From a virus (taxonomy: Duplodnaviria > Heunggongvirae > Uroviricota > Caudoviricetes): DNA of 64,000 bases. The notes below the pieces were generated by a model. The model searched no databases. It saw nothing but the letters and a program-made list of their open reading frames with translations, and had not been told where the DNA came from. Position numbers and translations under genes: made by a program. Shown here in pieces: positions 12,463 to 58,786 of this stretch. The first letter of the stretch is position 1, and each line of letters opens with the position of its first letter. The DNA is taken from IMG/VR virus record IMGVR_UViG_3300022871_000010; one strand, 5' to 3'.

Positions 12463-12586
12463 TTTAAATGAACTGTTTGTAGTTTGTTTAAACCTGAAGT
12501 TTAAATGAACTGTTTGTAGTTTGTTTAAACCTGAAGTTTAAATGAACTGTTTGTAGTTTGTTTAAACCTGAAGTTTAAATGAACTC
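12463..12586. repeat. Perfect tandem direct repeat: a 37-bp unit (tttaaatgaactgtttgtagtttgtttaaacctgaag) in about 3.3 copies, in the upstream region of the helicase gene.
   Basis: Units begin at 12463, 12500, 12537 and 12574 and are identical. Confidence 0.9.
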
Positions 12587-12677
12587 TTTAATTTTTATTC
12601 TTACATACCATAGTTTACTTAATTCATCAATGTGGTCTACAGCTTTACTATTAACTAATATATCTCTAATTCTTGCT

Positions 12678-13238: not shown

Positions 13239-13454
13239 TTTATTTCACCTATCATAATTGTTTATATTAATATAATTAATAATGATATATATAAATGTTT
13301 TGTTTTACCATTATCCCTTATCATATTCAAAGTCACCTGACACTGGTTACAGTGACACTCATAATATATTCTTAAAGTCTATATATATAAAATTGTTATA
13401 TATATACACTCTCTGAAGGCTTTTAGAAATGCACAATATTTATTAGAAAAAACA

Positions 13455-13997: not shown

Positions 13998-14152
13998 ATC
14001 TTGTCACATTTTTTCAGTGACACTTTTCCAATATTATGATAGGGTTGTGCAAAATAAAAACATTTATATATATCAAAGAAAATAATAATATTCATATAGA
14101 AAAAAAGGAATTAATTTTTAACAATTCTTTTTTGTAAATAGGTGATATATTT

Positions 14153-14539
14153 ATGACATATGAAAAAAACAATAAACATTTATACTTAGGGATAACAAAA
14201 GACCTACTGGTCAAAATAAAAAAAATTAATCAATTCTTAGAAATACCCCAACATATCATTATTAATTCTGCATTAAAATCTCAATTAAACATTTTATCAA
14301 GTGCTGAAGATGTTATTAATCTTAAACCATATTTTGAACAACATATAAAATTTATAAGATATGATAATAACATTATGACACATATTAGTCAAATTAAAAG
14401 ATTAAGTCAAATGGCTTTTTTATTAGATACCACCAAAGCGCAATGCATATATATTTTAGTTAATAAAGGTTTAGATGAAAAATTAAAGCTAATGAATTTA
14501 AAACAACAATATGTGGTATCTAATAATAGGGGGTACTAA
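14153..14539 (+). CDS. Hypothetical protein (128 aa). First gene of the plus-strand block.
   Basis: ORF preceded by a TATA-like aaaacatttatatata and the SD aggtga. Confidence 0.5.
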   Translation: MTYEKNNKHLYLGITKDLLVKIKKINQFLEIPQHIIINSALKSQLNILSSAEDVINLKPYFEQHIKFIRYDNNIMTHISQIKRLSQMAFLLDTTKAQCIYILVNKGLDEKLKLMNLKQQYVVSNNRGY

Positions 14540-17900: not shown

Positions 17901-19475
17901 ATGAAATGGTATGAATATAATAATATAGAAAGAAAAAAAGAAGTGTATGATAAACATACTACTGCGGACTTCTGGGACTGGTGGTCTGGTGGGGAACCTG
18001 CAGTTATGGAAGTTAGAATTATGAAGGATTATAAAGAAATTAAAAAATTTGCCCAATCAGTTAAATTACCTTTTTCGGCTAGTGGAGTTTATGTTAAGTC
18101 CGCTTATGAATTATCTTTTGTTATTAATAAATTTAAAGACACCCACACTATTTGGTTTGGTGCAAATCCTAAAAGACAAATTATAAGTCCTAGAGGATGG
18201 AAGACTTTTTCCGGGAAAGATATTGGTATAGATAAAATTAAATATTTGTTTATAGATATTGATAGAGTTACAAAAGAAGGTGCTGCATCGACTAAAGATT
18301 TGTTGAGTGCAGATTTTTTGGCTGAAAAGGTATTGGAAGAATTACACAAAAATAAGTTTGCCGAAAAATATTGTAAAATTTGTTCCGCTAACGGATTACA
18401 ATTATTAATAGAACTTGATGAACCAATAGTAATGCCCCCACTAGTATTAAATGATAAAGGAAAATATGAACCATCGCCTATTTTTGAACAGTACAAAAAG
18501 GTAATAAAAAATGGTATAGGTAAAGTGTTATGTAAATTTTCAAAAAAATTCAATGATGAATATAATGTAGAGATTGATTCAACAGGATTTAATATGGGAA
18601 GAGTTATGGCCTTACCTGGAAGCTTTAATTTTAAGCATGGTCTAAAAGTTCCTAGAGGACTTATTGAATTACGTGATGGAAAAAATAAAGGTTTTTCCGA
18701 TTACTTAATGGAGTTATTTAAATCAAAAAAAATTAAAACAAAAGTGCAGGACCAATACAACAATAAATCCGCTGAAGTAATGCTTAAAGAATATAACTTA
18801 GATATAACTAAAGCCAAACAAAACATTATAGTTAATTTAATGATGGATTATGAATTTCCAGACGGAGGAATAAATAATACTTTATGGTATGCACTAAAAA
18901 TATTATTGCACAACCAAGGAATTTGTAGAGACACAGAACACTATAATGAATTGCACAATATATTAAAAATAAAGCACGACAGAGCATTTCCGGATAATGG
19001 TTTAGAAACAGAATACTTAAATAATTATGATGGAACTTTCAAGAAGAACCATATTGATATGGTTCCAACCATAGTAAACAAATATCTTAGGTGCCACAAA
19101 ATAGTTAGGGATTCAGATAAAAAGGAACTATATTTAAAACCAATATTTCCAGTATCCCCTAATGGTAAAAGTAAAGCAAAAATACAAATACCTATAGACC
19201 CTAAATTGTTCAAGTATGATAAGACTGAAGCTTATGAATTAACAGAAGACACTAATGACTTTTTGTTTGATGTAAAAAAGTTAGGTAAAGAATTATTGTA
19301 TAGAGAATTATCAATACAACAAGCATCCACTATAGAAATGATTTTTTCTTCAAACACGGAGAGACAGATTGTTATAAACTTTTTACACAGTTTCAGAAGT
19401 AAGTGGGGGGACCACACAACAATTTATATGATGAAATATTATTTAGATGATTTTATCAATTACAAAAGATGGTGA
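17901..19475 (+). CDS. Archaeo-eukaryotic primase (AEP/PrimPol-like) domain protein. The start is revised to the internal ATG at 17901, which follows the SD ggtga.
   Basis: Motif I YLFIDIDRV (DxD). Motif II SANGLQLLIELDEP (sGnGlHh). Motif III NMGRVMALPGSFNFKHG (R..GS.N.K.G). Confidence 0.55.
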   Translation: MKWYEYNNIERKKEVYDKHTTADFWDWWSGGEPAVMEVRIMKDYKEIKKFAQSVKLPFSASGVYVKSAYELSFVINKFKDTHTIWFGANPKRQIISPRGWKTFSGKDIGIDKIKYLFIDIDRVTKEGAASTKDLLSADFLAEKVLEELHKNKFAEKYCKICSANGLQLLIELDEPIVMPPLVLNDKGKYEPSPIFEQYKKVIKNGIGKVLCKFSKKFNDEYNVEIDSTGFNMGRVMALPGSFNFKHGLKVPRGLIELRDGKNKGFSDYLMELFKSKKIKTKVQDQYNNKSAEVMLKEYNLDITKAKQNIIVNLMMDYEFPDGGINNTLWYALKILLHNQGICRDTEHYNELHNILKIKHDRAFPDNGLETEYLNNYDGTFKKNHIDMVPTIVNKYLRCHKIVRDSDKKELYLKPIFPVSPNGKSKAKIQIPIDPKLFKYDKTEAYELTEDTNDFLFDVKKLGKELLYRELSIQQASTIEMIFSSNTERQIVINFLHSFRSKWGDHTTIYMMKYYLDDFINYKRW

Positions 19476-27149: not shown

Positions 27150-27222
27150 GGGCTCGTAGCATAACGGCTAATGCAGTCGCCTTGCAAGCGAAAGACTTTG
27201 GGTTCAAATCCCAACGGGTCCA
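27150..27222 (+). tRNA. tRNA-Ala (anticodon TGC).
   Basis: Cloverleaf read by hand: acceptor GGGCTCG/CGGGTCC with the G3:U70 Ala identity pair, D-arm GCAT/ATGC, anticodon loop CTTGCAA, T-arm TTGGG-TTCAAAT-CCCAA. No encoded CCA. Confidence 0.8.
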
Positions 27223-27509
27223 TTCATACCAGAAACAAAGACAGAACAATATAGCTAACATACGATGTTGTAAGGAAAACCAGGTACTCTGGCAACCTAT
27301 ATCTGTAGTCGCAACAGACTATCCTGCCAGGGGTAAATGAAATACAAGTAACGATGAGATTAGTAAATAATGAAAACTTTAAATGAACCTTTTTGGAATG
27401 TTTAATGTTGAGTAATTGTTTAAAATTGTTTGAGTCACTCAACTGGTTTCAAGGTTTATTGCTCTTTGCTGGATAAAGGTAGTTTCCGCCTAAAAGGGAA
27501 CATTCAATT

Positions 27510-27598
27510 TGGGGCATAGCTCAGTATGGTAGAGCAGGTTAATGGGATAATTTAATTATTCAATCTATCAGTCGGGGGTTCGAATCCCTCTGCCCTTA
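27510..27598 (+). tRNA. tRNA-like gene with about 14-20 extra nucleotides in the anticodon arm (possible archaeal intron) and a mismatched 1:72 pair. The anticodon could not be assigned.
   Basis: Acceptor and D-arm (T)GGGGCA-TA-GCTC-AGTATGGTA-GAGC. T-arm GGGGG-TTCGAAT-CCCTC. 3' acceptor TGCCCTT-A. The middle region AGGTT...AATCT can pair around a 21-nt insert. Confidence 0.5.
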
Positions 27599-27599
27599 T

Positions 27600-27870
27600 T
27601 CAATAATCACACTTAACCATACTCCGTAGCTGATGAAAAGGTTATCTAGGTTTGGACGAACGAAAGCGGAGATAATTGTCGTCTCTCAATTGTGCACGAG
27701 TAGAGTGGAAAGGGTGTTAGACAACATAAATTCAAGCAGCACATAAAGCATGAACATGTCAAGAAGGTGTGAATCCTTCAAATATTTCCATAATCGGGCT
27801 TCGCTCGAGAAGATATATACCGGGAAGATGTTCTTTAAAAAGGGGCACGCCCGCCGGTATTTAATTATTG
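27600..27870 (+). ncRNA. Candidate structured noncoding RNA: a GC-enriched island next to the tRNAs.
   Basis: Local GC is far above the 30% background. Codon content (CGA, ACG, GCG) is atypical for this genome. GC-rich helices are possible (GGGCTTCGCTCGAG..., GGGGCACGCCCGCCGG). No confident family assignment. Confidence 0.3.
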
Positions 27871-27894
27871 CACATAAATATTTAGGTAAAAAAA

Positions 27895-28008
27895 ATGAAA
27901 ATAGATATAATTTGTAATGATTGTTTAAAGATAATCAGGACTGAAGAAAAAGACACATTTGATTATCATCATAAAGATTATTGCAAAGAGTGTGAGGAAA
28001 ACAAATGA
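27895..28008 (+). CDS. Zinc-ribbon mini-protein (37 aa). Not in the ORF track.
   Basis: MKIDIICNDCLKIIRTEEKDTFDYHHKDYCKECEENK with two CxxC pairs, preceded by an A-rich RBS. Confidence 0.45.
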   Translation: MKIDIICNDCLKIIRTEEKDTFDYHHKDYCKECEENK

Positions 28009-28028
28009 ATTAATAGAAGGGATAAATA

Positions 28029-35210: not shown

Positions 35211-36107
35211 ATGAATGACATAAATAAAGTATGGACGGAAAAGTATAGACCAAAACAAATGAGCGATATAGTTGGTGGGTTTAAAGATGAAATAAACAAC
35301 ATGCTTAAAGAACCACAATTAATGCAGCACTTACTATTTCATTCAAGAAGCCCTGGAGTGGGTAAAACAACTTTAGCTAGAATAATATCAAAACAGTTAG
35401 AAGCAGATGTCCTGGAAATAAATTCTTCAGATGACAGAAGCATAGAGACTGTTAGAACTAAAATAATAGCTTTTGCGAGGACTAAATCATCAAACCCTAA
35501 TACGAGAAGGATAGTTATCTTAGATGAAGCAGATGGCCTTACAGGGATATCACAGAAAGCATTGATTAATCCAATGGAATCATATGTTCACAATGTATTA
35601 TTCATATTAACTTGCAATGATATAACAAAAATTATAGATACATTACAATCAAGATGCAATATCATAAATTTTGATAATCCCGATAGAGGAGACATATATG
35701 AATATTTAGTTAAAGTATGTAAACAAGAGAAAATAACATTTACAGAAAAAGGGTTATTTAGTATAATAAAATATAATTATCCAAGTATAAGAAATTGTAT
35801 TATAGCAATACAAAAGACAGTTATGAAAAAAGGAGTTGTCACAGAAGACTCTTATGAAATATTCAATGAACAACATGAACACATATGGAATTTAGTAACT
35901 AAAGAAAAAAATTATGAAGTTGTTAAAGATTTCATATTATCAATAGATATTAATATTAAACAATTAAACAATTATTTATGGGATAAAGCCGTAAAGACTT
36001 CAAACCCTAAATTAATAAAAATAACTTGTATGAACGAGATACTAATGTCCCGGGGAGCGGATGATAAAATAGTTTTTATTACATCGTTGTTGGAGATGGT
36101 TAAGTGA
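35211..36107 (+). CDS. rfc: Replication factor C small-subunit-like clamp loader (AAA+) (298 aa).
   Basis: RFC box II WTEKYRP. Walker A SPGVGKTTLA. Walker B ILDEADGLT. SRC motif LQSRCNIINF. Confidence 0.85.
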   Translation: MNDINKVWTEKYRPKQMSDIVGGFKDEINNMLKEPQLMQHLLFHSRSPGVGKTTLARIISKQLEADVLEINSSDDRSIETVRTKIIAFARTKSSNPNTRRIVILDEADGLTGISQKALINPMESYVHNVLFILTCNDITKIIDTLQSRCNIINFDNPDRGDIYEYLVKVCKQEKITFTEKGLFSIIKYNYPSIRNCIIAIQKTVMKKGVVTEDSYEIFNEQHEHIWNLVTKEKNYEVVKDFILSIDINIKQLNNYLWDKAVKTSNPKLIKITCMNEILMSRGADDKIVFITSLLEMVK

Positions 36108-39220: not shown

Positions 39221-42200
39221 ATGATTAGAGAAAAAGAATATGTTTGTCCTCCAAATTTTGAGGATGTATTAATATACGATATAGAGACAGCGGCATTCGG
39301 GGATTCGCCTAATGCACAAAAAAATGATTTAAGAGTATTTGGGTATTATTCATTTAATACAGATACTCTAGGAACATTACCGTATTATGATAAAGAAGGT
39401 ATTCAGAAACTTATTGATGAACATAAATTCTTAGTAGGTTATAATAATATAGAATATGATAATCCAATATTAGAGAGAGAAGGAATTTCTTTAGAGTATA
39501 AACGAATGGTTGATTTGATGAAAATATTATTAAATAGGGCCGGCGGAATGAAAACAAATAAAGGAATGGTTGGGCAAGAACTATTAAGATATTCGTTAGA
39601 CGCAGTGACAAGATTCTTTGACTTAGTAAATGATGAAACAGCAAAAGGAGATTTAGATTATTCAATATTGAAAAAAACTAAATGGACTAAAGAAGAAAAA
39701 GATGATATAATAAAATATACTAAAAGAGATATTGAAATAACTAAAAAGCTTTATTTATTTATGGAAAAATATTTTGAAGGATTTAAAGACTTCGTTCCAG
39801 AAAAAGATATTAAAGGAAAATATTATTTAACTGACAGTATGGCAAAAGTTGTATACAAAGCAATATGTCACGCCCTTAAATGGGAACCAGAATATGATAA
39901 AGACTTCACTCCAGAACTTGCGAAAGATAGAATTGACGGCGGATATGTATCATACCCGGCTGGAGAAAAGTTTGTAGGAAATATTTATTGCCTGGATTAT
40001 AACAGCCTTTATCCATCAATTATGATGATGTGTAACCTTTACGGAAGAAACAAGACTACATTCAAAGGATGGAATGGTGATAACTATTTTGATGTAAAAG
40101 GGTTTTATGATAGTGAAAACCAAAGTGAAACTTCAGTACTATTACAAAACTTATATTTATTAAGAATGATGTATAAACGAAAACTATTATTAGAAGACGG
40201 ACACATCATTAAAATGATAGACAAAAAGAATGGGAAAAGTGTTTATGATTATATAGGACAAAAATATCATCACGTAAGTAAACACGCAGGTGGGCAGATT
40301 TGTTCCTCTTTAGAATTATTAACCAAAGCGCAAGCAGACCATTTCTATAAAATAACTTTAGAAGGAATGGACCCAAGAGAGTACACTATTAAAATAATTA
40401 TTAATTGCTTTGATGAGACAGGACAAGTAATGACCCCCGAAGGAATTAAGTATATCAAAGATTGCAAAGTCGGTGATATGGTTTATTCTATTAATCCAAA
40501 AAATTCATTATTAGAAGTAAAACCAATAATCGATGTAACTAAAAGAGAATACACTGGGAGTTTTCACAATTACAGAAGCAACGGATATAATTTTAGAATA
40601 ACCCCGAATCATAAGTTATTATTAAATAACAAACATCAAAAACAAGGCGACAGTGTATTTTTAAAATCTGTAAGTTTAAGAGACCAAAGAATTATTCCAT
40701 CCGCCAAACCTAATTTTCCGGAACAACCAGAATTTATTTATTTAGACGATGTATACCATGAAAATTTTATGGTAGCTATAAGACCTAAAGACAATGAACA
40801 ATTGTTTTTCACAGATAATAATTTAGATATTAATGATTTCAGGTACAGTACAGTATTGAAGGCATACATAATTAAATACAGTGAAATAAAAAAAACTTTA
40901 AGAACATTAGAAAATTGTGATATAAAATGTTATCACGAAGACACAATCATTAGAGATTGCAATGCAATGGATTATAAAATGGATAGAAAAACTTTTATGG
41001 AATTGATTGGATGGTTAATATTCAGAGGAAATATTCATAAAGTTAAAACATACACTACAATAAATCCTAGAACACTAAAAGTAAAAAAAGTTGCGGAAAG
41101 ACAGTTCATGACAATTAAAGGAACACATAGTTGGTCTGAAACAATAACAGTTAAAGCAATATTTGATTTGTGTAAATCTCTGGGGTTGCATCCAGTAAAA
41201 CAAGGAAAAATAATATTATGTCATAATCAGATTTTAGTAAATATGATGTTACCATATAAAGTTGACGACACCCTAATGAATTTAGAAGGGTTCCTAAAAT
41301 ATTTAGATGCTGAAACCGCGCACTTAATAATTAAAACGATGATAAAATTTTCTCAAGAAAATTCATCAACAGACATATGTGTTTGGGATGAAGGAGCAAA
41401 AATAGCAGTATGCAAACTTATAACTTTAGCTGGAGGAACTTTTGTTTTAACACCAAAAAAGAATTTTACTAGAATAAGAACATCTTTTGTTCCAACGCTA
41501 ATAGGACCAAAAAATAAAAAATCATATCAACACAGTGGACCAATATATAACATTCATGTAAAAGATAACCATACTATACTTGCGGGGAGCTATGGGAAAT
41601 TTAATTGGATAGGGCAAACATCCTACGGGATTTTAGATAAGAAGTACTACAAATTAGTATATGATAAAGTTGCCGCAGGAGATTGTACCAGATTAGCCAG
41701 ACAATGGGTTAAGTTAGCAAGAAAAAGGTTTAAGGCCGAAGGATACAAAATCATATATACAGATAGTGTAACTAAAGATATGAAAGTAACTTTACAGAAT
41801 GACGAACAAATAACGGTTGAAGAATACTGGAATAAGTATGCGGCAAATAAAGAGTTAGTTGCAGAAACAAAATTTAGACATGAAGACAAAGAATATGGTG
41901 ATTGTATCAAACCAATACTAACATGCAACGATTTATACAAGAACGAGTTTCAAACACCAGTACAAATAATAAGGCACAAGAAAGCTGATAGAATTTATGA
42001 ATTTCATACAGAATCAGGTAAAGTATTAAAATGTACAGCAGACCATTCAATAATAACATTAGACTTAGACACCATGCAATATAAGACAATAACACCAGAA
42101 GAAGCAAAAGAAGTAGGGTTTTTATTAATTGACGTTAGAACGCACGGAATGGCTCCTGATGATATGACTTTAGAGGAAGCAGATTTCACAATGGATGCAA

Positions 42201-43021
42201 TAGTTAAAACAGAAGAATATTTCGAGAATGATTATGTTTATGACTTTTCAATAGATGATTACGAAAAGTTCTATGCCAACGATGTATTAGTACATAATAC
42301 TGATTCATGGTATTTTGAAGATGTGTACGACGACCCACAAAGATTCCTGGAATTAAAGGACAAATTAATTGAGGAAATAAAAACACACACACCATTCCCA
42401 TCGGCAACATTTGATGCAGGAGTAGATGATGAAATTAAAGCAATGTTCTTTTTTCAAGCAAGAAAAGGTAAAGCTGCTAAAGAAGAAGATGAAAGCGAAT
42501 TAGATGATGATGACCGAATGTATAAACCTTTAGGCCTAATGAAAAAGAATTACATTTATGTAACCCAGAAAGACAAATTAGTATTAAAGAATTTAGGGAT
42601 AAAGAAAAAAAGTATCAGTGCATTATCTAAAAAGATATTTTGGGAATACATGGTTCCAATAATAAAGAAAGACTTTGTAGTAAAGTTTTCTAAAGTAAAG
42701 ATAGATAACTTAATGATTGAATATTTATCTGAAAATATAGAGTTAGCCTATATGAGAAAGAAAGTTAAATCATATGGGGCGTATAAGAAATCAAACACAA
42801 TAATTCAAGCACAGATAGCTAAGAAGTATGGCCCAGGAATACATTTTTTAATACCAAACAAAAGACATATTGGTGTTGGAAAAGGAGTAACTTATTGTTC
42901 AGACAAAGAATTCAAAGAGACAGGAATGAGCATAGCAGATATAGATTTAGAATATTATCGTAAAGAATTAGCTTATTTTGCAGTAGATAACAGACAACAA
43001 AAGTTGTTTGATATGTTTTAG
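39221..43021 (+). CDS. polB: Family-B DNA polymerase with a 3'-5' exonuclease domain, interrupted by two inteins. The extein is about 694 aa, or about 740 aa if intein 2 takes the shorter Cys-start boundary.
   Basis: Exo I IYDIETAA, Exo II YNNIEYDNPIL, Exo III YTKRDIEIT. Motif A LDYNSLYPSI. Motif B KIIIN-[intein]-SYGKF. Motif C GYKIIYTD-[intein]-TDSWYFE. KxY motif KKNYIYV. Confidence 0.85.
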   Translation: MIREKEYVCPPNFEDVLIYDIETAAFGDSPNAQKNDLRVFGYYSFNTDTLGTLPYYDKEGIQKLIDEHKFLVGYNNIEYDNPILEREGISLEYKRMVDLMKILLNRAGGMKTNKGMVGQELLRYSLDAVTRFFDLVNDETAKGDLDYSILKKTKWTKEEKDDIIKYTKRDIEITKKLYLFMEKYFEGFKDFVPEKDIKGKYYLTDSMAKVVYKAICHALKWEPEYDKDFTPELAKDRIDGGYVSYPAGEKFVGNIYCLDYNSLYPSIMMMCNLYGRNKTTFKGWNGDNYFDVKGFYDSENQSETSVLLQNLYLLRMMYKRKLLLEDGHIIKMIDKKNGKSVYDYIGQKYHHVSKHAGGQICSSLELLTKAQADHFYKITLEGMDPREYTIKIIINCFDETGQVMTPEGIKYIKDCKVGDMVYSINPKNSLLEVKPIIDVTKREYTGSFHNYRSNGYNFRITPNHKLLLNNKHQKQGDSVFLKSVSLRDQRIIPSAKPNFPEQPEFIYLDDVYHENFMVAIRPKDNEQLFFTDNNLDINDFRYSTVLKAYIIKYSEIKKTLRTLENCDIKCYHEDTIIRDCNAMDYKMDRKTFMELIGWLIFRGNIHKVKTYTTINPRTLKVKKVAERQFMTIKGTHSWSETITVKAIFDLCKSLGLHPVKQGKIILCHNQILVNMMLPYKVDDTLMNLEGFLKYLDAETAHLIIKTMIKFSQENSSTDICVWDEGAKIAVCKLITLAGGTFVLTPKKNFTRIRTSFVPTLIGPKNKKSYQHSGPIYNIHVKDNHTILAGSYGKFNWIGQTSYGILDKKYYKLVYDKVAAGDCTRLARQWVKLARKRFKAEGYKIIYTDSVTKDMKVTLQNDEQITVEEYWNKYAANKELVAETKFRHEDKEYGDCIKPILTCNDLYKNEFQTPVQIIRHKKADRIYEFHTESGKVLKCTADHSIITLDLDTMQYKTITPEEAKEVGFLLIDVRTHGMAPDDMTLEEADFTMDAIVKTEEYFENDYVYDFSIDDYEKFYANDVLVHNTDSWYFEDVYDDPQRFLELKDKLIEEIKTHTPFPSATFDAGVDDEIKAMFFFQARKGKAAKEEDESELDDDDRMYKPLGLMKKNYIYVTQKDKLVLKNLGIKKKSISALSKKIFWEYMVPIIKKDFVVKFSKVKIDNLMIEYLSENIELAYMRKKVKSYGAYKKSNTIIQAQIAKKYGPGIHFLIPNKRHIGVGKGVTYCSDKEFKETGMSIADIDLEYYRKELAYFAVDNRQQKLFDMF
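40406..41587 (+). mobile_element. PolB intein 1 (about aa 396-789), carrying a LAGLIDADG-type endonuclease, at the motif-B (pol-b) site. The C-terminal junction is non-canonical.
   Basis: Starts CFDETGQVMTPEGIKYIKDCKVGDMVYSI. LAGLIDADG-like LIGWLIFRGN and LITLAGGTF. Block F-like IYNIHVKDNHTILAG. No His-Asn immediately before the SYGKF that restores motif B. Confidence 0.6.
41765..42298 (+). mobile_element. PolB mini-intein 2 at the motif-C (pol-c) site. The preferred boundary is a Ser-1 start (aa 849-1026), giving the spliced motif YTDTDS. The alternative is a Cys start at 41903 after EYGD.
   Basis: Block A SVTKDMKVTLQNDEQITVEEY. Block B VLKCTADHSIITLD. C-terminus ANDVLVHN|TDS. Confidence 0.65.
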
Positions 43022-47042: not shown

Positions 47043-47396
47043 ATGGGTAAGAAGATAAACGTCTTAATTGACGGGTTGGATATGAACAGTTTTGAATCAA
47101 TGGCCAGAACATTTGTGGAGCTAAGGGATATTAGTAAAGAAATGGCAACACAGATGGAAGCCATTGAGGACCGTATAAAATATATGCTTAAAGAAAAAAA
47201 ATGGGAAGACTATAAGACCCCATCAAACATTCATTTAAAGCGTTTTACAGTAAAGAAAGAAAGAATTAATAAAAACTTATTATCAATGTTACTTCCACAG
47301 GAAAAATTGCAAAAAGTATTAACGACTACACATGTAGAAACATTGAGTATACTATCTCCAAAGGATAGAGTGAGGCTAAAAAAATATGTCAATTAA
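47043..47396 (+). CDS. Hypothetical protein (117 aa).
   Basis: ORF preceded by the TATA-like aaacatttataaa. Confidence 0.5.
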   Translation: MGKKINVLIDGLDMNSFESMARTFVELRDISKEMATQMEAIEDRIKYMLKEKKWEDYKTPSNIHLKRFTVKKERINKNLLSMLLPQEKLQKVLTTTHVETLSILSPKDRVRLKKYVN

Positions 47397-48417
47397 AAAT
47401 ATATTTTCAAAAATGCTTGGACCAGAAGCTACATTGAAAAAGGAACTAAAAAAGTATAAAAAACTTAAAGCAACGCATGATAAATTAGATAAGGAATTAT
47501 CTACAGGAAAGATAAGCAACAAAGCTCTAAAAAAATTAACATTATTACAAGAGGAACTAGAGAAAATGGGAAAAAAATTTAAATTAGAAAAAGGCAATTT
47601 AGTATTAAATACGCCTTCCAATGCTACTACTGCAGCAACTCCGCAGGAAACCATACAAAACAAAGATGACTTTTTAAAATCTTACAAAAATAAGATGCAA
47701 GATAAAGATGATGCGTTTAATGATAAACAAAAGACTGAAGAAATAGAATACATGGAAAGAATGAATCAGCAGTATGAAGAAGAAGTTTATAAACAGGCAC
47801 AATTAAAAGACGCACAAATAAGTCAACAACGAAATTTAGAATTAAAAGCACGCCAAGAACAACAATATCAGGCGCAACAAATACAGGCAGAACAAATGCA
47901 AGCACAACAACAATCACAACAACATCAAGCACTTCAACAACAAGCACAGCAAGATGCTTATAGAGCAGAGTTAGCACAACGACAACACGCACTTCAACAA
48001 CAAGCATATGAAACAGAAGTTGCTAGACAAGTTCAGGAGCAAGCTATTGATGAACAAACAATGCAGCAAGTAGCTGCAGAACAACAATTATACGCAATTC
48101 GGCAAGAACAAAAACACGCAGTACAACAAGGTCAAGCACCATATAGAGATGAACGAGCTGAAGAATTAGAACAACAAATTAGGCAACAACAGGCCCAGGT
48201 AGAACAACCACAACAGCAACGTGCATTGTCTAAAGTTACGGCATTATTACCAGATGGTATTGAATTACCTATAATGATGTCACCTCAAGACATAGCAGAG
48301 TTTATGGTAGAAATCCATAAAAGTATGAAAACAAATGAGTTCTTTAATATTAACGGATTGTTAGTTAATCCAAATCAAATACTGACAATACACATTGAAG
48401 AGCCTCAAAATATATAA
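47386..48417 (+). CDS. Gln-rich coiled-coil protein (343 aa). Scaffold-like; function unknown.
   Basis: Long Q/A/E low-complexity core with LQQQAQQD repeats. Confidence 0.5.
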   Translation: MSIKNIFSKMLGPEATLKKELKKYKKLKATHDKLDKELSTGKISNKALKKLTLLQEELEKMGKKFKLEKGNLVLNTPSNATTAATPQETIQNKDDFLKSYKNKMQDKDDAFNDKQKTEEIEYMERMNQQYEEEVYKQAQLKDAQISQQRNLELKARQEQQYQAQQIQAEQMQAQQQSQQHQALQQQAQQDAYRAELAQRQHALQQQAYETEVARQVQEQAIDEQTMQQVAAEQQLYAIRQEQKHAVQQGQAPYRDERAEELEQQIRQQQAQVEQPQQQRALSKVTALLPDGIELPIMMSPQDIAEFMVEIHKSMKTNEFFNINGLLVNPNQILTIHIEEPQNI

Positions 48418-49309: not shown

Positions 49310-49483
49310 ATGTCAATAAGAGTTATTGCGGGAGTATTAATGATTCTAATGACCATGCTCATGACGTGGCGTGAAGGTATGATTAAATTTATAGCAATAG
49401 GTATAGGCATTGTAATATGTCTATATATTATCAGAAAGATTGCGGACCTATATTGGTATGGCAAAGACAAGAACGAGTGGTAA
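49310..49483 (+). CDS. Small membrane protein (57 aa). Not in the ORF track.
   Basis: MSIRVIAGVLMILMTMLMTW...IAIGIGIVICLYII. Confidence 0.4.
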   Translation: MSIRVIAGVLMILMTMLMTWREGMIKFIAIGIGIVICLYIIRKIADLYWYGKDKNEW

Positions 49484-49494
49484 TATTTCTAAAT

Positions 49495-50320
49495 TAATTA
49501 AATTATAGCACTGACTTAATTGTCGCACTCTTTTATAAAGTAGTCAGGGCTATATATAAATGAACTGACTTAATTGTTTCACATCTATATTCTCTAAACT
49601 ATATGTTGTAAACTATATGTTGTAAACTATATGTTCTAACCTATATGTTGTAACCTATATGTTCTAAACTATATGTTCTAAACTATATGTTGTAACCTAT
49701 ATGTTGTAAACTATATGTTCTAAACTATATGTTCTAAACTATATGTTCTAAACTATACTTCATTCTTGTTATTTACTTGACTGACAAAAATGTCTCACTC
49801 CTTTTATAAAGAAACACAGTTCATATATAAAGGACTGACTTAATTGTCTCACATCTATATTCTCTAACCTATATGTTGTAACCTATATGTTGTAACCTAT
49901 ATGTTGTAACCTATATGTTGTAAACTATATGTTGTAACCTATATGTTGTAGACTATATGTTTCCAACAAGTTACTTTTATCGGGACTGACAAAAATGTCT
50001 CACTCCTTTATAAAAGAAGTTACTATATATATAAATGGACTGACTTTTTTGTCTCACATCTATATTCTCTAACCTATAGGTTGTAACCTATATGTTGTAA
50101 CCTATATGTTGTAACCTATATGTTGTAACCTATATGTTGTAACCTATATGTTGTAACCTATATGTTGTAGACTATATGTTTCCAACAAGTTACTTTTATC
50201 GGGACTGACAAAAATGTCTCACTCCTTTATAAAAGAAGTTACTATATATATAAATGGACTGACTTTTTTGTCTCACATCTATATTCTCTAACCTATAGGT
50301 TGCAGACTATACCTTTTATA
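49495..50320. repeat. Higher-order repeat locus. Four roughly 110-bp leaders, each with two TATA-like boxes and duplicated GACTGAC...GTCTCAC elements, are each followed by an array of 14-bp direct repeats (CTATATGTTGTAAC or CTATATGTTCTAAA).
   Basis: Arrays span about 49597-49757 (11 or more units), 49867-49958 (about 6.5), 50071-50178 (about 7.5) and 50291-50312 (truncated). The leaders at 49981-50070 and 50181-50290 are identical. There are no spacers, so this is not a CRISPR. Confidence 0.9.
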
Positions 50321-51975
50321 AAGGATACTATAAAATGTTGTATAAAATTGATAAAATATCAAAAAATGAGATTTTTGGATTTACAATTTTGAAAGGCTAA
50401 AAAATTTTTTAGCTTCGTGAAAAAACCAATTCGTTTCTCGGTAAAACTCATATGAAACTTTTTTCTCTATATACAAATACGCATAATATTTTATTTGCTT
50501 AAAGTAACATTATGTTTAATTGTTTAACTAATCTAACACGCAGACACCCCCAATTAGGGTAGTGTTTTTGGAAGAATCGGACCATCTAGAATACTTAGCA
50601 TCTTAAACATACTATCCCTTTATAAAGGAAATATATATTTCTGAAAAAAAATTATATATTTATTCTGAGAATTATATATTTCTTTTATATACTTTATAAA
50701 CAAATCTAAATTAATTAACAACAGGTATATACATTTCAGTAATTCATATACATCTATATGTTTTTTATTAATTCATATACATTTGGGGTTAACAGAACAT
50801 GCCAGATGATACAGGTATTCTCTGATGGTATCTTTTAGATACTAAGTATACAAAAGATACTATGGTTTTATTTTTATAATTATATATTTCTTTTATATCC
50901 CAAAAAGTATGCAGTGCATTACATACATTGTATACATTGTATGCATTGTATACATGTAACACTTAGGAACTTAAACGCGGGTAATAAATGATACAGACCG
51001 GCACAATATATAACAGATGTGTTGCGTGTAACACATGGGGTCTAAAAGATACTAGGGATATTTCTGGTAACACACTGGACTTCAATTTTGAATTTTGAAA
51101 TTTGAATATATAAAAGAATAAAAATTAAACAGGTAATAAAAATATAGGTCATGCCACATTGCGCACAGTTCAACCACCCGATGTGTTACCACCCAAATTT
51201 CAAATCAGGTAACACGGAACAGCATATTTGAAATTTTATATATGATATTTGGATAATTTCAATTTTTAAGAATTTAAAGCGTAATATTTGAAATTTTTAA
51301 ACTAGTTGAAAATCCCTATATTTCAAAATTCAAATATAGCTTTAAATTCAAATTTCAAAATTCAAATATAGCTTTAAATTAAATATTTCAAATATTGTTT
51401 ATATATAGGCGTAAATTTCAAATATTCAATTTTTAAACAGGATAATTTTAAATATTCAATTAGAACATATTTAAATTTTAAAATTAACGTGGTTTATTTG
51501 AATTTTAAGAACTTATTTGAATTAGTATATAGATATATTTGAAATTATTTTAAAGTTCTTTAAAACGCTTAATATTTGAAATTCTTTTATAAAGGACTTT
51601 TGGTTTTTAAAAAATTGAATTTTCTTTATATACTAATTGAATACAACCTGTTTATTAGTAGAATTTAAGGGGGTAATATTTAGGGGGTATATAGGTTTTA
51701 AAAAAAATACATTATTTCATTTAAAAGGAAATAGGGTACAGCCTCTCTACTATCCGAATTAAAGCATATTAACTTTTTTACTATTTATAAAGGTTTCTAT
51801 CTGTTTAAAAGGTTATTTTTTTACTTTATAAATAAAATTTTTAGTCTTTATAAAGGGTTTCGGTTTATATGTTTAATAGAGGTTTCAGGGTATTTACTAC
51901 TAAAAAATTACAAAGAAAGTTTATATACATTTTTTACTTTCTTACATCATAAGGTAAATAAAAACCTTAAAAAAA
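50321..51975. promoter_or_regulatory. 1.65-kb AT-rich noncoding region dense in ATTTGAAAT/ATTTCAAAT motifs and short direct repeats. Candidate replication origin or unwinding region.
   Basis: No ORF of 60 aa or more. More than 15 copies of the 9-mer in both orientations at 51060-51620. A roughly 31-bp tandem duplication at 51330-51390. CATTGTATAC x3 at 50920-50955. GTGTTAC/GTAACAC operator half-sites at about 51020-51216. Confidence 0.5.
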
Positions 51976-52206
51976 ATGGAGTTAAAAAAAATGGAAAACC
52001 AAGAAAATTTAAAAATAATTTATAAAACAATTACAGACAATTTTGAAGGCGATATAAAAAACTTTATTACTGAAAAAATTATTAAACCACAGGATTTAAG
52101 CGAGTGGATAAAAAATTTAAATAATAATAGTGACGGCGAAATGGCTCACGAAATTTTATATATTGTTGATAGTAAAACAGGCGAAATATTACCAATCATT
52201 TTTTAA
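51976..52206 (+). CDS. Hypothetical small acidic protein (76 aa). An alternative start is at 51991.
   Basis: First ORF after the noncoding region. Followed by a T-run. Confidence 0.45.
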   Translation: MELKKMENQENLKIIYKTITDNFEGDIKNFITEKIIKPQDLSEWIKNLNNNSDGEMAHEILYIVDSKTGEILPIIF

Positions 52207-52221
52207 ATTTTAAATTTTAAT

Positions 52222-52368
52222 TTTTTTTTATTGTTTAGGTGTGTTACTTTAATAGATACTACAAAGTAACACGCAAGAGCCATTTTACAAAACCGAAAGG
52301 TTTATATATAAGCTATGCTTTTAGTAATTATAAGGAATTAAACCTTAAAAAAATTAATAGAGGAAAAA
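52222..52368 (+). promoter_or_regulatory. Promoter cassette copy 1: oligo-T terminator, 10-bp perfect inverted repeat GTGTTACTTT-N12-AAAGTAACAC (52241-52272), BRE/TATA AAAGGTTTATATATA (about 52296-52312), conserved leader TTATAAGGAATTAAACCTTAA, then SD GAGG.
   Basis: Almost identical cassettes at 53606, 55798 and 58705. Confidence 0.75.
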
Positions 52369-52806
52369 ATGAAAGAACTAAAATCTGGAACTTATTTAAT
52401 AAAAAATAATAAAGCAGAATTAACAACATTAGAACCTAAAGGGTGCGTTAGATTTGTAACAAAAGATGAAACTAAAATTAATCTTAATAAATTTGATAAT
52501 TGTATAATGTATATATCTAATACTCCATTGAATCAAGATATTTCTATTTATCAACTCGAAGACAAAGGGGGTATAAAAATTAATATAAATACAATAAAAG
52601 AAATAAAAAAAGATTTAAAAATAAAAAATAGATGGGTATATGAAACATATTTTTTTAATGGCGAAATTTACGAAACTAAAAGGTATAACAATTGGTTTCA
52701 GATTTTCAGAAATGCAAAAACTAAAATTAATATTCCTTTTGCACATTTTGAAACCCAAAAAGCAGTAATAAACAATTTATTACAATATGCAAAAGAGGGG
52801 TTTTAA
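52369..52806 (+). CDS. Hypothetical protein (145 aa).
   Basis: ORF driven by cassette 1. Confidence 0.55.
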   Translation: MKELKSGTYLIKNNKAELTTLEPKGCVRFVTKDETKINLNKFDNCIMYISNTPLNQDISIYQLEDKGGIKININTIKEIKKDLKIKNRWVYETYFFNGEIYETKRYNNWFQIFRNAKTKINIPFAHFETQKAVINNLLQYAKEGF

Positions 52807-52807
52807 A

Positions 52808-53041
52808 ATGATATCAAAACAATATATAAAAGATTTAGAATTTAGCACTATTGAAGATATTTATACTTATATTGTAGATAGTGAAATAAACGGGGCGATT
52901 AATCAATTTAAGGAACTGATAAATAAATTATCGGGGCAACAATTTTTAAACTTTTTAAAGTTTTTAAATAACCAAGATTATGGGAATGCAGAAGAAACAG
53001 AACTTTTTAAAATTAAAGTTTTAAATGCAAGGGGGGTATAA
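52808..53041 (+). CDS. Hypothetical protein. The start is revised to the ATG at 52808 after the SD agagggg.
   Basis: ORF only. Confidence 0.45.
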   Translation: MISKQYIKDLEFSTIEDIYTYIVDSEINGAINQFKELINKLSGQQFLNFLKFLNNQDYGNAEETELFKIKVLNARGV

Positions 53042-53043
53042 AA

Positions 53044-53280
53044 ATGGTTATACCACAAAGTAAAACTAAAAAAGTTGTAGTTATGTTTAATAAAAAATTT
53101 GAAAGAATAACCATAAAAAACAATGAATCAATTTTTAAATTATTACGACAAGCCGAACAATTAAGAAAACAAGCAAACAAATATCAAAATAAAAAATTTT
53201 GGGTTTTGCACGAAGTTAGAAAACAACAAAAACAAATTGCAATAGAACAATTAAAAAAATTAGAGAAAAAAAATGGATAA
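53044..53280 (+). CDS. Hypothetical basic protein (78 aa).
   Basis: SD aggggggta. Confidence 0.45.
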   Translation: MVIPQSKTKKVVVMFNKKFERITIKNNESIFKLLRQAEQLRKQANKYQNKKFWVLHEVRKQQKQIAIEQLKKLEKKNG

Positions 53281-53408
53281 TAAAACAGGATTAAAAAAAG
53301 GGGATTATATAGAAAATTATAAAGAAACCAAAGAAAACGAAGTATTTATATTTATGTATATTAACGGAGTTGAATATAAAGGATTATTAAACGCAGAGGA
53401 ATATTAAA
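53274..53408 (+). CDS. Mini-protein (44 aa). Not in the ORF track.
   Basis: ATG overlaps the upstream stop. Confidence 0.3.
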
Positions 53409-53409
53409 A

Positions 53410-53601
53410 ATGAATTTTAAAATAGATATTAACGAAATTAAAACACAGGGCGAAGCTAGAAGTTTAGGAATGGAGTTTCAAGAGTGGAGTAGCAAACAAA
53501 GTTTAAGTTATGGAGAATTAATAAATTATCAAAATGATTTAATGACAATAGCAGAAAAATTTGATTTAATCGAAGAATTTAAAGAGAATGGAATAATTTA
53601 A
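53410..53601 (+). CDS. Hypothetical acidic protein (63 aa).
   Basis: ORF followed by a T-run. Confidence 0.45.
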   Translation: MNFKIDINEIKTQGEARSLGMEFQEWSSKQSLSYGELINYQNDLMTIAEKFDLIEEFKENGII

Positions 53602-53605
53602 TTAT

Positions 53606-53752
53606 TTTTTTTTATTCTTTACGTGTTACTTTAATAGATACTACAAAGTAACACATAAGAACTATTTTACAAAAACGAAAGGTTTATATATAAGCTATAC
53701 TTTTAGTAATTATAAGGAATTAAATCTTAAATAAATAAATACAGGTGGAAAA
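53606..53752 (+). promoter_or_regulatory. Promoter cassette copy 2. Inverted repeat at 53623-53654; TATA at about 53678-53692.
   Basis: Same architecture as copy 1. Confidence 0.75.
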
Positions 53753-54652
53753 ATGGAATTTAAAACACAAATATATAAGGAAGCACAGCAGACACAAACA
53801 AAAGTTTATGATTTGCAGAAAGTAGAAAGCAAAAGACACAGCGAAAAGAAAAACGAAATTTATTTTAAATATTCTAATTTAGAAAGAGAATTAAACAGCA
53901 AAAAATACGCAGAAGAAAGAGAAGCAGAAGCACAGCACGACAAAGAAAAAGAAGCTTTAAAAAATCAAAGAGCAGACGCAGACACACAACAAAAAACATT
54001 TAAAAAAATTATTGCTTATATGGATATCCTTAAAGCAGAAGCAGACTTTAAAAAAGATGATTTTGGGGCGTATATTTATGATTACCCAAAGGACAAACAA
54101 GGCGAAATTTTAAGAGTTATGAAAGATAATTGTTCTTGTTATCCTGAAAAAGAAAAAGTTTTCTTAAAACCTATTGATACATTACACGAAGATAAAAATT
54201 TAATTCTAAAAGTTTATATTGGCGACAATACCAAACCAAAAAACAAAAAAAGTTTATTTGTTCTTGGAAAAAGTGTTTTAAATTTAAATCATTATGAAAG
54301 CAAAGTTTTAACATTGCCCCACGATTACGGCATAAATTCCAATGAAGAAAACGCAAGTATTAGAAGCATATTAAAGGACTTTCCGACTGAAAAAGAAGCA
54401 AAGGCGTATTATGAGAAGAATAAAACAAAAGTGCTTAAAAGCTTCTTAATAGAGCATAAAAACGCAGTTGCAGAACTGGAAGAAGTGCGAAAAAATACAA
54501 CTTCTTACGATTGGAAACTTTTATATTTAGAATCTAAAAGAGATTATTACATAAATTCTTATAGTGGATACGAAGAAAACGAAGACTATAACAAAGTTTT
54601 AAAAGAACTTGAAGAATTAAAAAAAAGAGGTTTAATAAATGATAGAAAATAA
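53753..54652 (+). CDS. Hypothetical K/E-rich protein (299 aa).
   Basis: SD aggtgg. Confidence 0.55.
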   Translation: MEFKTQIYKEAQQTQTKVYDLQKVESKRHSEKKNEIYFKYSNLERELNSKKYAEEREAEAQHDKEKEALKNQRADADTQQKTFKKIIAYMDILKAEADFKKDDFGAYIYDYPKDKQGEILRVMKDNCSCYPEKEKVFLKPIDTLHEDKNLILKVYIGDNTKPKNKKSLFVLGKSVLNLNHYESKVLTLPHDYGINSNEENASIRSILKDFPTEKEAKAYYEKNKTKVLKSFLIEHKNAVAELEEVRKNTTSYDWKLLYLESKRDYYINSYSGYEENEDYNKVLKELEELKKRGLINDRK

Positions 54653-54995
54653 AGAGCCAATAACAAGAATACAATTAGGAAATATTTTAAGAAAATTAAG
54701 TAAACAATATAACTATAAATATTATAGTAGTTTTGAATGTTGTAATAATTGTTTTACGAGTGGATTACCGGACGGCGAAGACTATGTTTATTTAAAATAT
54801 TGCAATAAAGGAATGAATCGCGAACCATTAGAAAGTTTTAAATATTCTAAAAGGTGGTGGTTAGTTTATGGTTTAAAATTTGAAACAAATGAGTTTTTTA
54901 AAATTTTAAAAACAGAAATTCAAAAAATTTCAAGTTCAATAATGGAAATACCAAAAGATAAAACAAAATGTATTATTATAATAAGGGAGATTTAA
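54639..54995 (+). CDS. Hypothetical Cys-containing protein (118 aa).
   Basis: ECCNNCF...YLKYCNKG. Confidence 0.45.
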   Translation: MIENKEPITRIQLGNILRKLSKQYNYKYYSSFECCNNCFTSGLPDGEDYVYLKYCNKGMNREPLESFKYSKRWWLVYGLKFETNEFFKILKTEIQKISSSIMEIPKDKTKCIIIIREI

Positions 54996-54998
54996 AAA

Positions 54999-55217
54999 AT
55001 GGGTGCTAATACATTCAGAAAAATAATAGAACAGACCGATTTGATTTATGATGATGTAGATTTGAATATTTTTTTAACAAACCACTATCTGAATATTTTA
55101 AGTTATGTAGAAAACAAGAAAAACTTTTTAAATTATATAGAAGATAACGAAAATATAGAAGAATTATGCACAGATAAAGACGGATTTGACAACCCGTTTA
55201 TAATTGGGGAAAAATAA
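54999..55217 (+). CDS. Hypothetical acidic protein (72 aa).
   Basis: ORF only. Confidence 0.45.
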   Translation: MGANTFRKIIEQTDLIYDDVDLNIFLTNHYLNILSYVENKKNFLNYIEDNENIEELCTDKDGFDNPFIIGEK

Positions 55218-55218
55218 A

Positions 55219-55404
55219 ATGGAATTAAACGAAAAACAACAGGAAAAATTACAAAAATTATTAATGGAATTTATGACAGAAAAAAATATTAAAATTCCAG
55301 ATGAAACTGATTTTGTTTTAGATACTATTTATTATGAAATGGTTAGTAGTATAGAGGAATATTTAAAAAGAATAAACAATATAGAGGTGCAACAAAATGA
55401 ATAA
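55219..55404 (+). CDS. Hypothetical protein. The start is revised to the ATG at 55219 after the SD gggga.
   Basis: ORF only. Confidence 0.4.
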   Translation: MELNEKQQEKLQKLLMEFMTEKNIKIPDETDFVLDTIYYEMVSSIEEYLKRINNIEVQQNE

Positions 55405-55792
55405 GAAAGATTTAATAACTAAAAATTTAAATAAGGTGTTTTCATATAAAACAGAATCAGAAGCAATAGGAGAAATTAAAGAAGAAAATTTAAAAGGATT
55501 TATGGACGAAAGCAACGCTTTTATGATTATTCCAAAATATGAAACACTTAAAACATATATTGTAAATACTTTTAATGTGCAAGAAACAAAAATTCCCGAA
55601 TTGAGTTATAACCACGACCACCCGACAAAATCAAGTTTTTCAAGAGAATATTTAAACGTGTTGTTTAGTATAGCAAAAAATACTAAAGGAGAAAAATTTA
55701 AAATTTCAGTTGGAAACACTTATCCTTTGAAAATTGAAACCAAAGAGTTTATATTTATTTTAGCCCCAGTTGTTGATAACGAACTAAATTAA
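55397..55792 (+). CDS. Hypothetical protein (131 aa).
   Basis: ORF followed by a T-run. Confidence 0.5.
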   Translation: MNKKDLITKNLNKVFSYKTESEAIGEIKEENLKGFMDESNAFMIIPKYETLKTYIVNTFNVQETKIPELSYNHDHPTKSSFSREYLNVLFSIAKNTKGEKFKISVGNTYPLKIETKEFIFILAPVVDNELN

Positions 55793-55797
55793 TTTTT

Positions 55798-55941
55798 TTT
55801 TATTCTTTATGTGTTACTTTAATAGATACTACAAAGTAACACACAAGAACTATTTTACAAAAACGAAAGGTTTATATATAAGCTATGCTTTACTATATTT
55901 ATAAGGAATTAAACCTTAACAAAAATTTAATGAGGAAAAAA
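55798..55941 (+). promoter_or_regulatory. Promoter cassette copy 3. Inverted repeat at 55811-55842; TATA at about 55866-55880.
   Basis: Same architecture as copy 1. Confidence 0.75.
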
Positions 55942-58705: not shown

Positions 58706-58786
58706 AAACGATACATTTATATATAAGCTATACTTTACTATATTTATAAGGAATTTAAACCTTAATAAAAATTTAATGAGGAAAAA
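58705..58786 (+). promoter_or_regulatory. Promoter cassette copy 4: TATA plus conserved leader only, without the inverted-repeat operator.
   Basis: atacatttatatataagctata...ttataaggaatttaaaccttaa...gaggaaaaaATG. Confidence 0.65.

Follow-up and report, generated by a model that had tools for sequence, protein, structure and literature searches.

Papillomaviruses and polyomaviruses have a gene-free region of 0.4-1 kb, the long control region (LCR) or non-coding control region (NCCR), which extends from the end of the late genes to the start of the early genes. Arrays of near-palindromic initiator boxes lie in its AT-rich core, the TATA boxes of the early promoters are adjacent, and separate regulator palindromes, such as the E2 sites, control the early promoter as well. 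For large archaeal viruses known only from metagenomes, to our knowledge, hardly any replication origins or early-gene controls have been mapped. Here, a gene-free field at positions 49484-51975 of a 64,000-nucleotide stretch (the window, 29% GC) of the IMG/VR record IMGVR_UViG_3300022871_000010, a large, uncultivated archaeal virus-like element, is described as a real, non-random cis-acting control region, which comparative data support. It fits best the description of a long control region belonging to a new group of large archaeal virus-like elements. The field is a mosaic of putative protein-binding arrays in a fixed order, running from lineage-specific tandem iterons through GTGTTAC/GTAACAC sites and a TTGAA-box array to TATA boxes and the first early promoter.

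The resemblance to the LCR and NCCR, comprising a gene-free late/early junction, a box array, regulator palindromes and TATA boxes, may serve as a working analogy rather than as a statement of membership. Promoters in the window are of the archaeal type, with a B recognition element (BRE) and a TATA box (consensus RAAAS-TTTATATA, 30-70 nt 5' of start codons), the host domain differs, and the genome is more than 10 times larger. The candidate helicase is MCM-like (AAA+) instead of a superfamily 3 (SF3) helicase with a defined origin-binding domain, while the boxes are unrelated in sequence, far more numerous (8-23), without fixed geometry, and accompanied by additional tandem iteron arrays.

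Archaeal oriC regions, which combine origin recognition boxes (ORBs) or mini-ORBs with a duplex-unwinding element and orc1/cdc6, share with the field an AT-rich unwinding region and repeated short boxes, and the replisome encoded by the element is also of the archaeal type. In Methanothermobacter and Pyrococcus, mini-ORBs of 13 bp form clusters to which binding is cooperative (PMC1904270, PMC4010727), with 'TTCC' and 'GAA' as core motifs (PMC1904270). A resemblance of the present boxes to ORBs was rejected, as only the GAA half matches and ATTTGAAAT contains no TTCC. The field also differs from oriC in having no inverted ORB pair around a spacer and no adjacent or detectable orc1/cdc6. Iteron origins and oriP of Epstein-Barr virus, with its family of repeats and dyad symmetry element, offer another parallel, in that lineage-specific tandem repeats stand beside an AT-rich region, a second site cluster is organised differently, and the copy number of a repeat unit varies between assemblies. 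The repeat units of the field, however, are contiguous and 14 bp long, compared with 17-22 bp for typical iterons, each array is accompanied by a double-TATA cassette flanked by ACTGAC-N6-GTCNCAC sites, and there is no adjacent rep gene.

A gene-free field and its conserved box array

The preliminary description had reported a gene-free, AT-rich stretch at 50321-51975 as the largest noncoding part of the genome. No open reading frame (ORF) of at least 60 aa starting with ATG occurs over 49411-51975, and the resulting gap of 2565 bp is the largest in the window, the next being 914 bp (13239-14152) and 767 bp (27262-28028). The reported stretch is gene-free and AT-rich (24% GC against 29% for the window), but its left limit at 50321 is only where the tandem arrays end. 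The field truly begins at 49484, the stop of a gene for a 57-aa membrane protein, and covers 2.5 kb, of which the stretch first described is the right 1.65 kb. It separates a late-type block, ending with that small membrane protein, from a block of small rightward genes. Thirty-one ORFs of 20-57 aa within the field were rejected as coding sequences, being of odd composition and without conservation. A decayed integrase gene was likewise rejected, as the field has no similarity to the integrases of two related elements (L123 and L131).

The central component is a cluster of A(A/T)TTGAA(A/T)T boxes at 51087-51590. In the window the box consensus is ATATTTGAAATT, a 9-bp palindrome about a central G/C, and 23 TTGAA cores in mixed orientation are packed into 516 bp, which agrees with the earlier observation of 9-mers clustered in both orientations; Tandem Repeats Finder (TRF) detects period-7 and period-8 runs of the box. 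The count of more than 15 motifs applies to relaxed forms only, with 16 of the 35 copies of TTTGAAWT in the window falling in 51087-51582, whereas exact ATTTGAAAT/ATTTCAAAT copies number only 7, all within 51197-51582. The same interval contains six copies of the 11-mer ATATTTGAAAT, which is found nowhere else in the window, and direct reading places a TATA-like element 0-10 nt after each of the six. ATTTGAA occurs 13 times in the field, compared with 1.2 times in dinucleotide shuffles, and none of 500 dinucleotide-preserving shuffles of the field attained either 13 ATTTGAA or 10 TTTGAAAT. The window has no ATTTGAAAT outside 51197-51582, another 15 kb of this genome (L110 and L114) contain none, and the array is a single occurrence in at least 79 kb.

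According to computed thermodynamics, the least stable 100 bp of the entire 64 kb are at 50618-50717 (free energy dG/bp -0.969 versus a mean of -1.181), and the least stable 200 bp, at 51364-51563, lie within the box cluster. The field thereby carries AT-rich segments of the kind at which the duplex unwinds in archaeal oriC, and its AT-rich region stands beside iterons, as in iteron-type origins.

Conservation was assessed through the extein of the family B DNA polymerase (PolB, two inteins, 39221-43021), because neither protein flanking the field has detectable full-length relatives. These are the product of the first small gene (51976-52206) and a 343-aa protein encoded just 5' of the field (47386-48417); the latter was discarded as a search handle, being an ORFan that matched only itself among 5.8 billion proteins and nothing in IMG/VR. 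The PolB extein has at least 253 homologues at 40-57% identity, and the relatives compared here share 43-57% PolB identity. Seven independent elements (L116, L117, L119, L122, L123, L126 and L131) possess a gene-poor gap 4-8 kb downstream of PolB, with a late block before it, small plus-strand genes after it, and homologues of window genes on both sides. The left border is marked in the window, L119 and L131 by a small membrane protein ending ...WWGKD..W.

On direct reading, these gaps repeat the order seen in the window: lineage-specific repeats or palindromes, GTGTTAC/GTAACAC, the A(A/T)TTGAA(A/T)T cluster, TATA boxes and the first small gene. The GTGTTAC group stands immediately left of the TTGAA cluster in L116, L119, L126 and L131, while L117 and L123 carry ATGTTACCC in its place. 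Between the cluster and the first small gene lie 70-400 bp containing TATA boxes, and in all 8 viruses the cluster is found 70-400 bp 5' of the first early promoter. The cluster itself is kept in L116, L117, L119, L123 and L131, in L126 by direct reading, and in L122 as the variant AATTGAAT. The most frequent 8-mers of the gaps belong to the ATTTGAAA/ATTTCAAA family, with AATTGAAT in L122 and both forms in L126. Across the group the consensus is A(A/T)ATTTGAA(A/T)TT, and the array comprises 8-23 near-palindromic boxes over 0.15-0.5 kb.

Shuffling gave the same result in four relatives as in the window, with 0 of 500 dinucleotide shuffles attaining the observed counts. The maximum number of ATTTGAA per 600 bp is 7-13 in L116, L117, L119, L123 and L131, and 3 in L126, whose boxes are mostly variants, compared with at most 4 in 179 unrelated control loci (1.95 Mb, of which 0.42 Mb have less than 35% GC); no ATTTGAA cluster is present in these 1.95 Mb. 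Judged by 100-bp windows, the cluster ranks in the least stable 0-2% in 7 of 8 viruses, namely the window itself and all but one of the 7 relatives. Since no colinear similarity exists among the relatives outside the motifs, selection has evidently acted on the boxes rather than on any transcript or remnant of coding sequence. More distant PolB relatives (L121, L125, L127-L130 and L133-L138) show no cluster in the 10 kb fetched for each, so the feature is either not universal or located farther away. As a separate observation, the titles of L125, L133 and L135-L138 assign them to metagenome-assembled genomes (MAGs) labelled Thermotogaceae, Bacilli, Planctomycetaceae and Pacearchaeota and to a giant-virus MAG, labels that probably reflect mis-binning caused by low GC.

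Early-promoter operators and lineage-specific repeats

Immediately left of the box cluster, a GC-richer island (50956-51215, 32-36% GC) contains five GTGTTAC/GTAACAC half-sites, at 50956, 51028, 51067 and 51209 on the minus strand and at 51183 on the plus strand, in keeping with the several copies noted previously. One complete inverted repeat is formed at 51183-51215, with a TTGAA box in its spacer. Eleven of the 13 copies in the window fall within 50956-55842, the number expected by chance for the whole window being 5.4. The half-site is indeed shared with the downstream promoter cassettes, where the full inverted repeat GTGTTACTTT-N12-AAAGTAACAC occurs at 52241-52272 (after a T9 run and about 30 nt 5' of CGAAAGGTTTATATATAAG), 53623-53654 and 55811-55842. 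These three early cassettes are nearly identical, each consisting of a T-run, the inverted repeat, BRE/TATA and a leader with a TAAGG...CCTTA hairpin.

The arrangement GTGTTACTT...AAGTAACAC 5' of BRE/TATA is found in these 3 early cassettes, in 5 cassettes of L126, where the repeat stands 5 nt from the TATA box, and in 1 of L116, and the same inverted repeat is therefore present at several promoters of one temporal class. Because it lies upstream of early promoters in three viruses, the GTGTTAC inverted repeat is, judging from its placement, a conserved transcription operator (or upstream site) of early promoters. Part of the field is accordingly linked to early-promoter control, since its GTGTTAC sites belong to these operators, and their accumulation in 50956-51215 ties the field to the early-transcription regulator. 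A scan of IMG/VR for GTGTTAC-N18-GTAACAC, which yielded 105 stretches with 84 loci listed, was set aside as producing chance matches throughout, none with relatives of window proteins.

To the right of the array, four palindromic TATA-like boxes TTTATAAA are located at 51586, 51784, 51825 and 51847 (51586-51854), mostly in a CCTTTATAAAGG-type context. They are followed by the promoter and leader of the first small gene (51915-51975, plus strand), with BRE/TATA GAAAGTTTATATAC, the TATA box at 51920-51927 and a TAAGG-N10-CCTTA hairpin at 51950-51969. Leader hairpins of the form TAAGG-N7-10-CCTTA recur just 5' of the ribosome-binding site at 52331-52347, 55902-55918 and 58747-58764, giving 4 against 0.84 expected. 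Early genes of L116 have similar AAGG...CCTT leaders, and L126 has an analogous GGTTA...TAACC hairpin.

The left part of the field (49484-50320), outside the coordinates of the preliminary description, consists of four plus-strand cassettes, in each of which ACTGAC-N6-GTCNCAC, TTTATAAA, TATATATAAA, a second ACTGAC-N6-GTCNCAC and the leader ATCTATATTCTCT precede a 14-bp tandem array. The arrays are found at 49585-49757 (12.4 copies), 49865-49961 (6.9 copies) and 50070-50180 (7.9 copies), with a stub at 50290, and the ACTGAC-N6-GTCNCAC sites number 8 against 0.04 expected. The window carries a 219-bp unit in two copies, but contigs that are otherwise 99.99% identical to it have a single copy, which reflects either real copy-number variation or assembly collapse. 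The motifs of this part are lineage-specific, ACCTATA being shared only by L117 and GTGAGAC only by L119. The 14-bp arrays are iteron-like and likewise confined to the lineage, and Pfam searches of the flanking proteins returned no adjacent rep-like gene. Their units are contiguous, without the spacers of a CRISPR array. With a pair of TATA-like boxes and a pair of ACTGAC-N6-GTCNCAC sites ahead of it, each array may be transcribed leftward or rightward.

Several further repeats punctuate 50396-51392. Direct reading reveals a perfect 18-bp palindrome, GCTAAAAAATTTTTTAGC, at 50396-50413, and an AT-rich imperfect palindrome of 69 bp occupies 50621-50689, with 32-nt arms that are 84% complementary and enclose a spacer of 5 nt; its centre falls in the least stable 100 bp found anywhere in the window. 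Its fold z-scores are strongly negative on both strands (-4.8 on the plus strand and -3.1 on the minus strand), which indicates symmetry at the DNA level. An arm motif, the 21-mer AATTATATATTTCTTTTATAT, is found at about 50670 and again at 50878-50898, corresponding to the repeated 20-mers noticed earlier. A 29-bp tandem repeat in 2 copies lies at 50721-50778 (plus strand). The triple repeat reported before is the 9-bp CATTGTATA at 50917-50955 (plus strand, about 3.7 copies, with copies at 50923-50955), and the reported duplication of roughly 31 bp is a 32-bp unit at 51318-51392, within the box cluster, with 2.3 copies at 93% match.

Replication origin and competing functions

The preliminary description had proposed the field as a candidate replication origin. 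What stands of this proposal is a genuine cis-acting region with origin-like traits, including a near-palindromic box array that is unique in the genome and situated in its most meltable DNA, the 69-bp AT-rich palindrome, and adjoining iteron-like tandem arrays and early promoters; no feature specific to origins could be demonstrated. The element brings its own replisome, consisting of PolB, an RFC-like clamp loader (35211-36107), an MCM-like helicase of 732 aa (14540-16738) and two superfamily 2 (SF2) helicases, and because it encodes this machinery, including the MCM-like helicase, it needs an origin. On the strength of these sequence features, it is plausible that the TTGAA array, or the field around it, is the replication origin, with a probability of roughly 0.4.

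In such a mechanism, a conserved, sequence-specific dimeric protein of viral or host provenance would coat the TTGAA array, and the coated array would mark the single site at which the duplex opens and the MCM-like helicase is loaded. The nearby GTGTTAC operators would couple this site to the early-transcription regulator, as in the papillomavirus LCR or the polyomavirus NCCR. A more ambitious version, in which the array would be the origin of an undescribed, widespread family of large archaeal viruses whose MCM-like helicase is loaded without Orc1/Cdc6 through the conserved box-binding protein and is wired to the early-gene operator, appears quite unlikely.

Several observations weigh against an origin in the field. 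Among the ten flanking proteins, no initiator gene is apparent: none has a credible Pfam hit, the marginal matches (E 0.0075 or weaker) all falling below curated cut-offs. Neither orc1/cdc6 nor whiP, the initiator genes adjacent to archaeal oriC, accompanies the field, and no Orc1/Cdc6 was identified anywhere in the window. Orientation of the boxes is mixed and differs between relatives, and neither the window nor the relatives contain a conserved pair of inverted blocks around a spacer; in lacking TTCC and a conserved orientation, the boxes depart from inverted ORBs or mini-ORBs. Part of the low duplex stability is a trivial effect of AT-rich noncoding DNA and an AT-rich motif, and the GTGTTAC sites are demonstrably linked to promoters. 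In L131, the cluster has an integrase gene running leftward on one side and the rightward early genes on the other, resembling a genetic switch. The tyrosine integrases of L123 (18360-19433) and L131 (16859-17998, minus strand) are homologous, with 34% identity, and lie directly beside the TTGAA cluster in opposite orientations; no integrase homologue was found in the element of the window.

Nucleotide skew adds to these counterarguments. The cumulative GC skew, suggested earlier as a check, reaches its lowest value where the strands switch at 13-14 kb, with no change of sign at 50-52 kb. Genes occupy the minus strand as far as 13.2 kb and the plus strand beyond 14.15 kb, and because GC skew and AT skew alike track the coding strand, flipping at 13-14 kb, skew is uninformative about the origin and does not refute it. 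Measured along the coding strand, the left arm has a skew of about 0.15, compared with 0.16 between 15 and 49 kb and 0.24 between 52 and 64 kb, three block values that misfit a bidirectional origin at 51 kb. Moreover, the strand switch itself houses a second long noncoding control region (13239-14152), divergent and beside the MCM-like gene, with AGTGACTGTATATACAGTCACT-type palindromes and TTGGCT repeats around a palindromic TATA box. Counterparts with their own motif arrays exist in two relatives, at 6883-7825 in L124 (TTGCCACA about 15 times) and at 1728-2377 in L213 (ATGTTACA/TGTAACAT), and the region is an equally good origin candidate. To the eye, a small protein encoded just 5' of the MCM-like gene (14153-14539 in the window; 70 aa in L124) resembles ribbon-helix-helix proteins.

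Two protein labels used in the preliminary description were also re-examined. The MCM-like label of the 732-aa protein is weakly supported: 8 of 33 relatives match the P-loop domain of MCM in Pfam, a profile of the family gives weak PDB matches to MCM6, MCM7 and MCM9, and four invariant cysteines precede the ATPase in a family of about 120 representatives at the 50% identity level. By sequence, the helicase appears MCM-like rather than clearly D5-like. The Orc-like label of the P-loop ATPase with three inteins (8387-10687, minus strand) could not be upheld, as Pfam, PDB profile search and fold search all gave no Orc1/Cdc6 signal. Its three mini-inteins occupy the Walker A motif, a position after the Walker B motif and a third site. 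The 355-aa extein is the most conserved protein encountered here, with more than 400 homologues at 50-75% identity and no Pfam family; it has a single weak VapE-like PDB hit (E 0.049), and a fold search with its AlphaFold model (predicted local distance difference test score, pLDDT, 77) recovered only generic RecA/AAA+ matches at a template modelling (TM) score of about 0.25.

Many of the same facts could be accommodated by a purely transcriptional switch or enhancer for the early genes, with the origin elsewhere, for example at 13.2-14.15 kb, an explanation that is considered possible, if on the unlikely side. The GTGTTAC repeats would then be repressor or activator operators governing every early promoter, and the TTGAA array a cooperative platform for a small viral regulator, such as a ribbon-helix-helix or helix-turn-helix protein, acting through runs of 7-8-bp units to set the first rightward promoter and, in temperate relatives, the leftward integrase promoter too. 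Temperate-phage switches and the ribbon-helix-helix heptad operators of omega of pSM19035 provide precedents in which one operator serves several early promoters and 7-8-bp units run in both directions. In accord with them are the GTGTTAC inverted repeats directly 5' of early BRE/TATA in three viruses, the period-7 and period-8 box runs, the constant placement of the cluster before the first early promoter, the divergent integrase and early genes of L131 and the adjacent integrase of L123. TATA-like elements point the same way, with 11 of the 19 copies of TTTATAAA in the window falling within 49400-52000 and one such element following every ATATTTGAAAT. The box, however, is present at no other early promoter (ATTTGAAAT was sought in the window, L110 and L114), and 13-23 sites over 500 bp far exceed what one promoter needs; an array confined to one place is also much larger than known operators. 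It stops 340 bp short of the TATA box of the first gene in the window, and the box is conserved though the small early proteins of these viruses mostly are not. No cognate regulator gene was identified, and the element of the window has no integrase.

A role as a genome end, a packaging site (pac/cos or direct terminal repeat, as in T7-like phages) or a centromere-like partition site of a carrier-state element is improbable. The junction of the small membrane-protein gene and the early block is a classic location for phage genome ends, and T7-type end regions likewise place short tandem arrays and then strong early promoters between the last late and the first small early gene. The site is unique in the genome, the contiguous 14-bp arrays look like centromere or pac repeats, and some contigs end within them. 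The positions of these ends nevertheless differ, and a 219-bp duplication, which exceeds the assembler k-mer in length, accounts for them, while contigs of 81.6, 67.4 and 43.2 kb run through the field without sign of fixed physical ends, and the field is mid-contig in long contigs of relatives. Genes for terminase, ParA and ParB were not recognised nearby or in the large proteins tested, terminase having been sought among flanking and large proteins with Pfam, PHROGs and PDB sequence searches, and the conserved box cluster has no T7 counterpart. Still further down in probability is a field that encodes one or more non-coding RNAs, TATA-driven and ending at T-runs, with the repeats as RNA parts. 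Many BRE/TATA-like elements and T-runs are present, some 100-nt windows fold better than shuffles, and the equivalent zone of L119 has two tRNA genes with their own promoters. In Rfam, however, no family reached its gathering score, and a limit relaxed to E 1 added nothing credible. Where inverted repeats and arrays occur, fold z-scores are low for either strand, as DNA symmetry predicts, instead of marking a strand-specific conserved structure, and among relatives only short near-palindromic boxes are conserved, leaving no RNA that could be aligned.

The element and the meaning of its control region

The same virus is represented by metagenome contigs of up to 81.6 kb at 99.99% identity, which extend the genome past both window ends to at least 95 kb; contigs with identical proteins were of no use for comparison because they belong to this same virus. 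Among 50,697 phage and archaeal-virus records, no usable match was obtained with the field by blastn or with PolB by tblastn. The nearest cellular PolBs, from DPANN archaea and Thermoplasmatota, share about 25% identity. Membership in the magroviruses is conceivable from the gene content, which is similar to that described for them (PMC5434244), but the deposited genomes have no detectable similarity and head-tail genes were not recognised.

Additional features were recorded along the element and its relatives. A tRNA-like gene of 91 nt at 27509-27599 (Rfam tRNA, 39.7 bits; anticodon not assigned by ARAGORN) may hold an intron and adjoins a tRNA-Ala gene at 27150-27222. A near-perfect 37-bp tandem repeat (12463-12589, 3.4 copies, 98% match) lies in the short spacer between an SF2 helicase gene and a gene for a 186-aa protein. 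Just left of window position 1, an IS200/IS605-type element with a Y1 transposase and TnpB (15761-17366 of L114) is inserted beside the gene for a 1408-aa protein in some contigs of the virus, while other contigs break there, and a 2568-aa Laminin_G_3 protein is encoded further left. In L119, the control region is separated from the gene for the small membrane protein by tRNA-Gln and tRNA-Pro genes (18357-18517), both equipped with a AAAACATTTATATA promoter of their own. L213, the relative that carries L123, has several gene-poor stretches of 0.5-1.5 kb around two HNH endonuclease genes (11887-16081).

The signature described here, a TTGAA cluster following GTGTTAC sites at the late/early junction, locates the main control region across the whole group, including relatives now mis-binned in MAGs of bacteria, of Pacearchaeota and even of a giant virus. 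Along with it come a conserved early-promoter operator and two concrete origin candidates, the TTGAA field and the region at 13.2-14.15 kb. Should the array prove to be the origin, it would reveal how an MCM-like helicase encoded by a virus finds its target without Orc1/Cdc6. In the more ambitious and quite unlikely version outlined above, the site would also be an archaeal counterpart of the papillomavirus and polyomavirus control region, and archaeal viruses known only from metagenomes would gain their first origin signature valid for a whole family.

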